Shown here: in pieces, positions 19,100 through 21,092 of the stretch
Layout: every line of letters begins with the position of its first letter
Numbering within the stretch: the stretch's first letter is position 1
Assembly: GCA_003345555.1 (NCBI GenBank)
Contig: PRDJ01000006.1
Location: 12,136 to 44,135, forward strand
DNA: 32,000 nucleotides
Direction: 5' to 3'
Origin: Candidatus Thorarchaeota archaeon
GTDB lineage: Archaea; Asgardarchaeota; Thorarchaeia; Thorarchaeales; Thorarchaeaceae
Notes under the pieces: generated by a model
Told to the model about the DNA's origin: nothing
What the model saw: the letters and a program-made list of their open reading frames with translations, nothing else
Databases searched by the model: none
Made by a program: the position numbers and the translations under genes

Positions 19100-19519
19100 C
19101 TACGACGGGACTTTCTCTATGACGACGTTCTTCACGCCCTCGAGGCCCTTAAGGGAGCTACGCAGTTCGTCGAGCCCAATTGAGAGCTGCTTCGGCGAGA
19201 AGTAACACTCATAGAAGCACTTCGTTCCTCGGAGGCAGACGCCAGTTGAGTACAAGAGGTCCACTAGCCCTGACTTCTTGAATATCTGCGATAGCTTTGT
19301 CAGAAAGTCATTGGTTAGCTTTCCGATTTCAAGTGAAAGAAAGCTCACCTCATCCGTTTCCAGAGGATAGATTCTGATCAATCGGTCCTTGTGTGCCAGA
19401 ACCATTAGTCCCTTGCTCGTACCTAAAGCTGTCTTGAATGCCTTGGGGAATCGAACAGTGTCGCTTTCGTCAAAAACCAGTACCCGGCCGGATGTGGCGC
19501 CTTCGTAAGTGCTTGGCAT
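19100..19519 (-). CDS. AbrB/SpoVT-like N-terminal domain + ACT-like C-terminal domain, putative regulator
   Basis: DESDTVRFPKAFKTALG...IRIYP resembles an AbrB repeat, and the C-terminus ending LKGLEGVKNVVIEKV is ACT-like. ATG 19519 follows GGTGA; the track's TTG at 19576 is an alternative. Confidence 0.55.
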   Translation of the reverse strand: MPSTYEGATSGRVLVFDESDTVRFPKAFKTALGTSKGLMVLAHKDRLIRIYPLETDEVSFLSLEIGKLTNDFLTKLSQIFKKSGLVDLLYSTGVCLRGTKCFYECYFSPKQLSIGLDELRSSLKGLEGVKNVVIEKVPS

Positions 19520-19585
19520 CTTATCACCCGTATCAGTGCCCGTGACATGGCGGATGTAATTGTCTAAACCTACCAACTATGTTAG

Positions 19586-19602
19586 TCCAATATAAACAAA
19601 GC
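19586..19602. promoter_or_regulatory. Candidate divergent TATA element between the AbrB-ACT gene and the split Cas4 locus
   Basis: CCAATATAAACAAAG, sharing the AATATAAAC core seen at 2471. Confidence 0.45.
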
Positions 19603-19694
19603 GCCACTGGACTCACGTCTAGGCCTCAATAACAGCCCGAGTATGGTGCCCCTTTTCAGAGTTCGCGCCGAACGACAAAACAGGAGTTGATTGT

Positions 19695-19985
19695 CTGTCC
19701 GCTCCAGAATCATCCCGAGCCGAGCACGAATGGCGAGACGTTACACAACTCAGAATCCAATTCCTCTGTGAGTATCGCCTCCACCTGGAACAAATGCATG
19801 GTGAGATTCAGACGAAAGCCGCTTCAGTTGGATCTTGGTTACATGAGACGGACGACAGAATGCCCAGAGGGCGTCTCGGACTTCGCTTTGTTCTTGCCTT
19901 TCTGCTTATTGTATTGGCTCTCGTTGCACTGATTATGTTCTTGAGGTGGTGGCAATGGTGGCTATCGATCTGCTCGCTACTCTGA
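19695..19985 (+). CDS. Small protein: Cas4-like N-terminal segment plus C-terminal transmembrane helix; probable CTG start
   Basis: The frame of the track's 19794 ORF is open from 19623 and reads ...WRDVTQLRIQFLCEYRLHLEQMHGEIQTKAASVGSWLHE...RFVLAFLLIVLALVALIMFLRW. This matches the Cas4 N-terminal C...G..xH motif followed by a TM helix. AGGAG at 19682-19686 is 8 nt before CTG 19695. Confidence 0.7.
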   Translation: MSAPESSRAEHEWRDVTQLRIQFLCEYRLHLEQMHGEIQTKAASVGSWLHETDDRMPRGRLGLRFVLAFLLIVLALVALIMFLRWWQWWLSICSLL

Positions 19986-20626
19986 TTCTCCTGCTTCTTA
20001 CTGCCGGAGCATCTATCTTGCTGCTCTCGTCTTCAGACAGACGACTTCCGAGATCGTGCACACGAATTCTCAGAGAATCTGCGATTGTTCAGGAGCGCAT
20101 CGACGACTTTCTCAGAAACGGAGCTAGAGAAGGATGTACTGACAAACATTACTTGCTGAGAGAACAGATGGTCTACTGTCCGAGTCACAGCTTCAAGGGC
20201 CGATTCGACCAAGCCATTTTCCGTTTTGATGAGACGCCCACCCTTGAGCTGCTGATTGAAAGGAAGTTTCCGACGCGGCACTTGCTAAAGAAGGGTAGAC
20301 CTGAGGATTTCTTTCAGGCCGCACTCTACTCACTGGCATTGGCTAGCAAAGGTGTCAATTGTGAACCCACTCTCCTTCTAATCATATACTGCAAGCAGAG
20401 AGATGCCTCTGACTGTGCAAGAAGGCTGATTCCGTCAGAATGTGCGGCCTGCAGGAAAGGCCGTACGTTCTCCAGAAGGTACAATCCAAGAGAAGTGCTA
20501 AAGGCACTGCGGAGGCTTGATGAGATATGGTATGAGGGCCGATCGCCTCGTGCATCTCCCGCGGCAGATAAGTGCGCCGGATGTCCCCATGGAAAGGCGG
20601 GACATTGCGAATATTCGGCCGCCTAG
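19955..20626 (+). CDS. Cas4/RecB-like PD-(D/E)xK nuclease core with N-terminal transmembrane helix (solo, non-CRISPR)
   Basis: Hydrophobic N-terminus, KGRFD (motif II), IERK (motif III), FQAALY (QxxxY) and C-terminal KCAGCPHGKAGHC. GAGGTG at 19943-19948 precedes ATG 19955. Confidence 0.82.
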   Translation: MVAIDLLATLILLLLTAGASILLLSSSDRRLPRSCTRILRESAIVQERIDDFLRNGAREGCTDKHYLLREQMVYCPSHSFKGRFDQAIFRFDETPTLELLIERKFPTRHLLKKGRPEDFFQAALYSLALASKGVNCEPTLLLIIYCKQRDASDCARRLIPSECAACRKGRTFSRRYNPREVLKALRRLDEIWYEGRSPRASPAADKCAGCPHGKAGHCEYSAA

Positions 20627-20663
20627 CAAAAGAGTCATCTTGGTGAGTTGTGTCAGCGAGACT

Positions 20664-21092
20664 ATGCATGAACTAGCAGGCTTCCTTACACGTGTTATCG
20701 AATCAAAGAGGCGGCTGAAGGAGGTCTACTACACGACTAGGGACGAGGATACAAAGGCAGATGTGAAGGAGCTCGTGGCAGCTACAATATCTGCTCAGAA
20801 GGCTGCCGAGACTCTCCTTAGCGAGTGTGGCAAGGCTCGGCTGGCACGGAAGGCCCTTGAGGACCGAAAGGCGGAACTGGTCCTGAGGATGTGGTCGACC
20901 GGCCTGCCTGAACGAGTAACCGATTACGCGTCCAGACAGAGGAAGCTTGAGCAGCAATACGTGCACAAGTACCAACAATCTCTCATGGAGTACATTCAGG
21001 ATCTTGTGAGAGAAATGACAAGCTGGCTGGACGACATCAAGACGTTGAGTAGTCTTCCGAGAGTCCCACGAGAACAGAAAGCAAAGCAATGA
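20664..21092 (+). CDS. Hypothetical all-helical protein (about 142 aa)
   Basis: Long charged helical ORF 37 nt after the Cas4-like gene. The track's upstream extension overlaps the Cas4-like gene, so the start is uncertain. Confidence 0.65.
   Translation: MHELAGFLTRVIESKRRLKEVYYTTRDEDTKADVKELVAATISAQKAAETLLSECGKARLARKALEDRKAELVLRMWSTGLPERVTDYASRQRKLEQQYVHKYQQSLMEYIQDLVREMTSWLDDIKTLSSLPRVPREQKAKQ

Follow-up and report, generated by a model that had tools for sequence, protein, structure and literature searches.

The window analysed here is a stretch of 32,000 nucleotides (nt) from Candidatus Thorarchaeota archaeon, and all coordinates are numbered from its first letter. It contains two overlapping genes, open reading frame (ORF) A and ORF B, which an initial annotation of this DNA had described as a split, doubly membrane-anchored, Cas4-like nuclease with no clustered regularly interspaced short palindromic repeats (CRISPR) nearby. 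ORF B extends from ATG 19955, with an in-frame GTG alternative at 19946, to TAG 20626. The frame of ORF A, which differs from that of ORF B, is open from the stop at 19620-22 to TGA 19983-85 and encodes the peptide WRDVTQLRIQFLCEYRLHL...GSWLHE and, after it, another hydrophobic helix, and the two ORFs overlap by 31 nt (19955-19985). We consider it probable that A and B form a translationally coupled two-gene operon, the products of which jointly make up one EXO5/Cas4-type PD-(D/E)XK nuclease. The two genes and their parts are the following.

19682..19686, + strand: Shine-Dalgarno-like AGGAG, 8 nt before CTG 19695, as read from the letters
19695..19985, + strand: ORF A, 96 amino acids (aa) from CTG 19695; predicted N-terminal nuclease half and C-terminal tail-anchor membrane helix
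19767..19769, + strand: Cys25 of ORF A, predicted fourth [4Fe-4S] ligand, invariant in 21/21
19830..19844, + strand: G46-x-x-L49-H50 of ORF A; His50 is the predicted active-site metal ligand, and G46, L49 and H50 are invariant
19887..19943, + strand: predicted membrane helix of ORF A, residues 65-83, Kyte-Doolittle 19-mer score 3.36, followed by a 13-aa tail
19943..19946, + strand: GAGG, putative ribosome-binding site of ORF B within ORF A, 8 nt before ATG 19955, as read from the letters
19955..20626, + strand: ORF B, 223 aa; N-terminal membrane helix, catalytic core and C-terminal Cys cluster
19970..20026, + strand: predicted membrane helix of ORF B, residues 6-24, hydropathy 2.62; helix 6-26 in the structure model
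20207..20266, + strand: motifs II and III of ORF B, D85 (GRFD) to E102-x-K104 (IERK); G82, D85, E102 and K104 invariant in 21/21
20315..20329, + strand: QxxxY of ORF B, Q121-Y125 (QAALY), invariant; matches the QxxLY segment of EXO5 in a PDB profile search
20390..20452, + strand: extra four-Cys insert of ORF B (C146, C154, C163, C166), all four invariant
20573..20608, + strand: C207-x2-C210-x7-C218 of ORF B, three predicted ligands of a Cas4/EXO5-type [4Fe-4S] cluster, invariant

The elements that the initial annotation had pointed out in ORF B, i.e. an N-terminal transmembrane helix, the motifs GRFD, IERK and QAALY and three C-terminal cysteines, are all present (residues 6-24; D85, E102, K104, Q121 and Y125; C207, C210 and C218). 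Likewise, the N-terminal segment of Cas4 lies as described in the other frame of the upstream ORF A, which ends in a transmembrane helix of its own (residues 65-83 counted from CTG 19695). The start at 19682 did not hold: this coordinate is that of the Shine-Dalgarno sequence AGGAG (19682-86) and not of a codon.

Three alignments were used to identify the two products, comprising 21 ORF A orthologues (A1), 21 ORF B orthologues (A2) and 12 soluble single-chain relatives (A3). The nearest relatives outside the family are soluble single chains of 250-280 aa (E 3e-9 and weaker) without a hydrophobic helix; all 12 members of A3 match the Pfam family Exo5 (PF09810; best E 9.2e-12), and some of them are labelled Cas4 (RecB family) by JGI. 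In hhalign comparisons A1 aligned with A3 at a probability of 96.9 and E 1.6e-10 (A columns 14-54 on A3 columns 33-73) and A2 with A3 at a probability of 99.5 and E 2.3e-23 (B columns 83-231 on A3 columns 108-260). A six-frame hidden Markov model (HMM) search of the window genome with A3 matched the two halves separately, at 19719-19850 (model positions 27-70) and in ORF B (model positions 110-256), and did the same in ten other genomes. Because these comparisons place A and B on separate and complementary stretches of the single-chain relatives, the two ORFs correspond to complementary parts of one EXO5/Cas4-type domain, in line with the proposal that they are its halves. As judged from the aligned sequences, the domain is cut between the GxxxH helix and the first core strand.

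The correspondence extends to individual residues. Cys25 of A aligns with the invariant Cys55 of the single-chain relatives and G46/H50 of A with their invariant G76/H80, while G82/D85 and E102/K104 of B align with their invariant G125/D128 and E142/K144, and C207/C210/C218 of B with the CxxC..C of both human EXO5 and the single-chain relatives. Human EXO5 is also the best solved relative of the B profile by sequence (E 0.0016, via QxxLY and the C-terminal CxxC..C). Among family models, TIGR00372 cas4 is matched by 15/21 B orthologues (best E 6.8e-6, all under the 65-bit cut-off), PDDEXK_1 by 6/21, PF01930 (Cas_Cas4) by 2/21 (best E 0.023) and Exo5 (PF09810) by 1/21 (E 0.23); a language-model search listed PDDEXK_1 clusters of ~190 aa from Chloroflexota and Pseudomonadota as look-alikes. 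By the cut-offs of curated models the pair belongs to neither Cas4 nor EXO5. The description as Cas4-like is borne out for fold and motifs, with the refinement that the nearest single-chain relatives are EXO5-like (PF09810) rather than canonical Cas4.

Invariant in the 21 ORF A sequences are L19, Q22, C25, G46, L49 and H50; in the 21 ORF B sequences they are E70, G82, D85, E102, K104, D118, Q121, Y125, C207, C210 and C218, plus C146, C154, C163 and C166. The catalytic motifs, i.e. D, (D/E)xK and QxxxY together with an upstream His, are therefore complete in 21/21, with H50 in A and the rest in B. That ORF A might have no conserved homologues, or that its Cys and His might vary among them, was a weakness that the initial annotation had foreseen, and C25 and H50 are invariant in 21/21. 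The alignments indicate clear purifying selection on both halves. The four additional cysteines of B follow the pattern YC-x7-C-x8-C-x2-C and are inserted after the strand downstream of the QxxxY helix; an insert of this kind is found at the equivalent position in some soluble relatives (P0029, P0030, P0048, P0065) and not in others. These four cysteines probably form a Zn site or bind a second Fe-S cluster.

Two separate Cys clusters combined with membrane anchoring are unusual for a nuclease, and the neighbours provide no functional context. Both points would suit a pair that has kept the fold while doing something other than DNA cleavage, for instance as a membrane Fe-S redox sensor or a DNA-binding anchor. 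Nevertheless, the residues of the PD-(D/E)XK site (H, D, E-x-K, Q..Y) are all invariant across ~80 genomes, which is unexpected for an inactivated enzyme, and we regard such a change of function as unlikely, while giving it more weight than any other alternative considered below.

Structure modelling supports the same division of the domain. The AF2 model of ORF B has a mean predicted local distance difference test score (pLDDT) of 84.6, with low values over the last 20 residues and values of 42-59 in the C-terminal Cys segment when B is modelled alone. It contains the PD-(D/E)XK core fold (alpha-beta-beta-beta-alpha-beta; VIA-align Z 10.7, 9.0 and 8.4). Foldseek assigned the model a probability of 1.00 to Cas4, EXO5 and MGME1, and the structural matches from Foldseek and VIA-align were to type I-C Cas4, EXO5, MGME1, Dna2, SSO0001 and AdnAB. 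In VIA-align, the match to the Cas4 domain of 7mi4_A (Z 10.7, root-mean-square deviation 3.6, 136 residues aligned) covers chain residues 54-195 only, and that to human EXO5 (Z 7.7-8.4, 148-149 residues aligned) runs from residue 147 on. Because the matches begin only at residue 54 of 7mi4_A and residue 147 of EXO5, B lacks exactly the N-terminal segment of Cas4/EXO5.

The initial annotation had proposed that A assembles with B, and a model of the A+B complex agrees with this proposal. It scored 0.91 compared with 0.02 for the best of three controls, and the mark for this score is reached by 58/80 solved complexes and by 2/110 mismatched pairs; the runs share at least 92% of contacts and the partner pLDDT is at least 84. 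In the model (i) residues 13-16 of A lie beside the GRFD strand of B, (ii) the A helix 19-32, which carries C25, packs on the QxxxY helix of B and on B residues 198-201, 206, 210-212 and 217-218, and (iii) A residues 45-46 and 49-50 (including G46 and H50) are in the interface, together with B residues 85, 103 and 105 at the catalytic site. C25 of A is modelled close to C207, C210 and C218 of B, and the four-Cys pattern of the nuclease class is spread over two chains. The confident contacts reproduce those within an undivided Cas4/EXO5 domain. The high score may stem from likeness to solved single-chain Cas4/EXO5 folds, and it therefore speaks to the fit of the two halves rather than to binding in the cell.

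Each product carries one hydrophobic helix of ~19-23 residues, with hydropathies of 2.2-3.5 for A and 2.0-3.1 for B over the 21 orthologues. In the ORF A orthologues the 15 aa before the helix hold 51 K/R in total as opposed to 2 after it, and the tails are 0-13 aa long (median 1). In the ORF B orthologues the N-terminal tails hold 2 K/R and 16 D/E and the 15 aa after the helix 60 K/R and 11 D/E. Since these counts fit the positive-inside rule, both soluble parts are predicted to be cytoplasmic. ORF A is predicted to be tail-anchored with its N-terminus inside and ORF B to have its N-terminus outside and its C-terminus inside, an arrangement resembling a membrane hairpin cut in its outer loop.

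Given that B holds the full catalytic triad, QxxxY and seven invariant cysteines, it might be a self-sufficient membrane-anchored nuclease, with A an unrelated small membrane protein or a regulator. Certain Cas4 proteins are active without their cluster, as described for LinCas4 in PMC8610317 and for the M. mazei Solo-Cas4 as cited in PMC13621843, and in two metagenome-assembled genomes (MAGs) B is intact although an insertion sequence (IS) has removed the Cys helix of A. We nevertheless find independence of B improbable, slightly more so than a function other than cleavage: A aligns to the N-terminus of the single-chain relatives (the E of 1.6e-10 given above) with its Cys and His invariant, the first 50-150 residues of Cas4/EXO5 remain outside the structural matches of B, and the C-terminal Cys segment of B, which has low confidence alone, touches the Cys helix of A in the complex model.

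The distribution of the pair separates it from CRISPR systems. A search with the B profile finds the pair in 49/59 genomes of one Thorarchaeota family; elsewhere in the phylum (191 genomes searched) this profile gave just four weak C-terminal matches. Cas1 is found in 18/61 family genomes without correlation with the pair, and the genera g1, g3 and g6 have the pair and not Cas1. In the window genome (93% complete) searches with cas4 and Cas1 models gave no match, and no other Cas4/EXO5-like gene is detectable in it with the A3 profile. Because neither Cas1 nor cas4 was found in its own genome, because the distribution of Cas1 is uncoupled from that of the pair and because the pair resides at a housekeeping locus, the pair is not part of CRISPR adaptation; the absence of a CRISPR link, noted initially for the surroundings of the genes, thus extends to the genome and the family. 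A CRISPR adaptation Cas4 encoded away from its array would explain why orthologues weakly match TIGR00372 cas4 and Cas4-Cas1 fusions and why the best structural match is a Cas4 domain; with whole pair-bearing genera devoid of Cas1, a locus fixed amid housekeeping genes and EXO5-like proteins as the closest relatives, we regard this as very improbable. The enzyme does not act in CRISPR adaptation.

The split itself was followed through the phylum. Searches with ORF B gave matches in 21/24 genomes of its own family and in 0/16 genomes from other families of the phylum. Among 21 other loci that were cut out, 20 keep both halves: a short ORF has the N-terminal motif, closes with a hydrophobic helix at its C-terminus and stops no more than a few bases from where the B orthologue begins; in the 21st, insertion of a TnpB-like IS has taken out the N-terminal part of ORF A. 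Conservation to this extent goes well beyond chance. A and B meet in TGATG, TAATG or ATGA overlaps or lie 4-10 nt apart, and in the genus of the window they overlap by 28-34 nt. A pattern scan of species-representative genomes added 60 loci, all from records labelled Thorarchaeota, Promethearchaeota or unnamed MAG (one record is titled Hermodarchaeota by its submitter), and of these 57 are split, none is fused, two carry an IS within A and one is truncated where its contig ends. In total, 78/78 loci with an intact ORF A (the window, 20 detailed and 57 further loci) are split and none is fused, which answers the call of the initial annotation for a survey of the gene pair. A profile search with B against every protein of 1.84 billion representatives, with no length limits, found ~22 clusters of the close family and no fused membrane-bearing form. 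As for the frame relation of A to B, +1 and +2 each account for about half of the loci, and 0 for a few. The split layout is real and conserved, and the varying frame relation, together with proper stops and proper starts, excludes an assembly frameshift, a recent pseudogene and programmed recoding.

The last of these would yield a single polypeptide by programmed frameshifting or stop readthrough at the A/B junction, and the predominance of TGA among the stops of A (49/55) and the few loci in which A and B are in frame with a single TGA between them (L010, L021) could be read in its favor. One recoding event cannot serve all frame relations, however, no conserved slippery sequence is present, TAA is the stop in six loci and for B a start codon of its own is always found at most a few bases from the stop, and we therefore give recoding hardly any weight. 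The least probable alternative, to which we give almost none, is an artefact or decaying gene, i.e. a single Cas4-like gene with a membrane hairpin that was frameshifted in the assembly or in the lineage: the overlap in different frames, the lack of a canonical start of ORF A in the window and the dispensability of the pair (G014 and G017 lack it cleanly, G006 retains a remnant and in two MAGs it is IS-disrupted) would fit it, but the consistent split in all 78 loci in all three frame relations, with the stop of A next to a proper start of B, the purifying selection on both halves and the absence of a fused membrane-bearing relative from the representatives searched do not.

For the two-gene nuclease that we favor, several observations point the other way and have to be set against the evidence above: (i) the window's own A and B match no Pfam model even at E 10 and no NCBIfam model, (ii) translation of ORF A, here and in its closest relative L002, hinges on a predicted CTG start, there being no ATG, GTG or TTG in the frame of ORF A 5' of ATG 19794, which falls after the Cys, (iii) the complex model has only one confident contact between the membrane helices (B16-A75), (iv) the four extra cysteines of B could hold a cluster of their own, and Fe-S in B alone would therefore not be decisive on the idea of a shared cluster, and (v) the neighbourhood consists of housekeeping genes that are syntenic across the family and thus gives no hint of function. 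With respect to the first point, because the window's ORFs have no Pfam match their Cas4 likeness rests on motifs, orthologue profiles and structure, and because they do not match PF09810 the link to EXO5 is transitive, leading from the pair to A3 (hhalign E 2.3e-23 and 1.6e-10) and from A3 to PF09810. Similarly, ORF A alone has no meaningful match in the family libraries, and its identity rests on hhalign and on the genome-wide HMM match. The profile comparison of each half that the initial annotation had recommended is accordingly of mixed outcome: the window's A and B match no Pfam or NCBIfam model, and it is the orthologues that touch TIGR00372 (15/21) and the relatives that are reached by hhalign.

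With respect to the second point, because no ATG, GTG or TTG precedes ATG 19794 in frame, the Cys helix could be translated only from a non-canonical start, and CTG 19695 is most likely the start of ORF A and the only plausible candidate that we see in the sequence. Three lines of evidence support this assignment. L002 has an identical GGAG-N8-CTG with a TGA stop immediately 5' of the CTG, and its ORF A therefore cannot start farther upstream. Over the 18 codons from 19740 to 19793, the window and L002 differ by 7 purely synonymous codon changes compared with 5 replacements. Finally, the ORF A orthologues are 75-98 aa long, and those with canonical starts begin 15-18 codons before the motif, the same spacing as that of CTG 19695. 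Two other starts were considered and rejected: ATG 19730, in the ORF B frame, would give a single gene by means of two compensating frameshifts and is neither conserved in L002 nor free of a stop (at 19769-71), and the 81-aa ORF from TTG 19687 does not share the frame of the conserved peptide and runs into a stop in L002. CTG starts recur in this lineage; they are found 8 nt after GGAG in ORF A of both the window genome and L002, and the B orthologue of L011 begins with CTG (in a CTGA overlap) at the very position of the TTG in L016, which belongs to the same genus. In genome annotation, a small half with a non-canonical start such as the one here is likely to be overlooked by gene callers, the more so as neither half matches Pfam.

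Taken together, we suggest the following model for the enzyme. In AddB and Dna2 an Fe-S staple ties together the N- and C-terminal parts of the nuclease domain, and in Cas4, EXO5, AddB and Dna2 alike the Fe-S cluster joins the two ends of one nuclease domain. In the model, (i) the cytoplasmic N-terminal part of A would supply the first beta-strand, the Cys25 helix and the GxxLH histidine, (ii) B would cross the membrane once, after a very short N-terminus outside, and would have its core, with D85, E102-x-K104, Q121..Y125 and C207/C210/C218, in the cytoplasm, (iii) the soluble parts of A and B would dock at the cytoplasmic face of the membrane, (iv) one [4Fe-4S] cluster held by Cys25 of A and C207/C210/C218 of B, as expected from Cas4, EXO5, AddB and Dna2, would staple the halves, and (v) the catalytic metal would be bound by H50 of A and by D85, E102 and K104 of B. 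The resulting enzyme would be a metal-dependent DNase acting on DNA ends, probably on a 5' single strand or flap as Cas4 and EXO5 do. Its ancestor would have been a soluble single-chain EXO5-like protein. In Thorarchaeota, two membrane helices would have taken the place of the linker that joins the GxxxH helix to the first core strand, and the gene would have been cut between these helices. Evolution would thereby have cut a nuclease domain exactly between the parts that the cluster ties together and fixed each part to the membrane.

Given that the membrane would keep the enzyme off most of the chromosome and near entering DNA, and that repeated loss and IS disruption fit an accessory function, we favor a role in processing or destroying DNA ends at the membrane, such as those of incoming viral, conjugative or imported DNA, as the most likely one. 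As to the purpose that this would serve, defence is possible and is matched in likelihood by repair or housekeeping, a membrane-linked repair task being about as likely as defence; processing during uptake seems less likely than either. A bolder version, in which an obligate two-chain enzyme gated by assembly or redox state, with a cluster bridging two membrane proteins, forms an innate barrier against entering DNA while the chromosome stays out of reach, is one that we hold to be rather doubtful. If true, it would amount to a new nuclease architecture and a new principle of defence or DNA entry in archaeal relatives of eukaryotes. Confirmation of the two-gene nuclease as such would provide a natural heterodimeric form of this nuclease class and a cluster common to two membrane proteins, and would locate a nuclease for DNA ends on the inner side of the membrane in an Asgard archaeon. 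It would also bear on the roles of solo-Cas4-type nucleases outside CRISPR by pointing to DNA that enters or touches the membrane.

What is known here is the fold, the motifs and the cluster pattern; what is new is the architecture, i.e. two genes, two membrane anchors and a set of cluster ligands and active site residues spread across chains. The pair has in common with EXO5/DEM1 (PF09810; human EXO5 structures 7LW7-7LWA) the PD-(D/E)XK core with D, ExK and QxxLY and the pattern of one N-terminal and three C-terminal cysteines, and the extra four-Cys insert recurs in some single-chain PF09810 relatives. While EXO5 is a single soluble polypeptide, the Thorarchaeota pair consists of two genes with a membrane helix in each product, its own proteins lie below any Pfam threshold and it is confined to one archaeal family. 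With Cas4 (TIGR00372/PF01930/COG1468; SSO0001 4IC1, type I-C 8D3L, Geobacter Cas4-Cas1 7MI4) the pair shares the fold, the motif set and the 1+3 Cys pattern, and like the archaeal solo-Cas4 proteins (PMC5704561) it is chromosomal, vertically inherited and located away from cas genes. In contrast to Cas4, it scores below the curated cut-offs, is split and membrane-anchored, has an extra four-Cys insert and has no Cas1/Cas2 partner. Transmembrane forms are not mentioned in the 2017 survey of Cas4 (Hudaiberdiev et al., PMC5704561), and no description of a split or membrane-anchored Cas4 or EXO5 was found in the full-text literature searched. The nuclease fold is also common to AddB/AdnAB, Dna2 and MGME1, as is the Fe-S staple except in MGME1; unlike the pair, these are domains of large soluble helicase-nucleases or mitochondrial enzymes. 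To our knowledge, none of them is split between two membrane proteins.

The order of genes at the locus is constant: a CpXC protein, a DedA/VTT protein and the 158-aa protein U on one strand, followed by A, B and the 141-aa coiled-coil protein C, by aRF1 on the opposite strand and by PheS/PheT. The housekeeping setting with aRF1 and pheST that had been recognized in the window is therefore syntenic across the family. A and B have been lost together in two genomes (G014 and G017), in which U and C lie next to each other, 70-170 nt apart, and G006 is decaying, with an ORF A remnant alone left (L028 2907-3011). Because the locus is constant and nevertheless shows clean losses, a remnant and IS disruptions, the pair is vertically inherited but dispensable. 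The disruptions occur in MAGs of one genus, where a TnpB/IS605-like element (CxxC...HADxNAA) lies in ORF A (L004 1-560; L037 600-950; L040); the insertion removes the Cys helix of A and leaves ORF B intact, and G006 belongs to the same genus.

Gene C (20667-21092, + strand) encodes a helical or coiled-coil protein of 141 aa without a Pfam match and lies tail-to-tail with aRF1. All 24 family genomes searched have it in this arrangement, as does one genome of a sister family; these include three family genomes and the sister genome that are without A-B. As an obligate third subunit gene C was rejected: it is kept without A-B, U and C then lying 70-170 nt apart or being separated by the ORF A remnant. 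The program-made ORF list has a 191-aa ORF from a TTG at 20517-21092 (+ strand) that overlaps the end of ORF B, and conservation backs only the part from ATG 20667. Gene U (19100-19576, - strand) encodes 158 aa without a Pfam match, is divergent from ORF A and is conserved at this place throughout the family; the TTG annotated as its start probably lies too far upstream, given that its relatives begin near a conserved EYEGATxG. Evidence for U as a regulator of A-B was not found, and U is likewise kept without A-B. Scans of the window for Rfam families and tRNAs gave no matches.

Upstream of ORF A lies one further element.

19645..19661, + strand: candidate upstream motif GGTGCCCCTTTTCAGAG, 33 nt 5' of CTG 19695; possible promoter element of the A-B operon

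The core of this motif, GTG....TTTT, is retained across an alignment of 21 upstream regions, and the motif is absent from the U-C intergenic region in both genomes that are cleanly without A-B (G014 and G017). In the form GTGC(C/T)CCTTTTCAG(A/G)G it is kept across genera at ~30-45 nt 5' of the ORF A start. It may be the promoter or an operator of the A-B operon. A separate TATA-like sequence, GAATATAAA(T/C)AAAGC at 19589-19602, adjoins the start of the divergent gene U and is kept in nearly all loci; because it is kept also in loci without A-B, it is probably part of the promoter of U.

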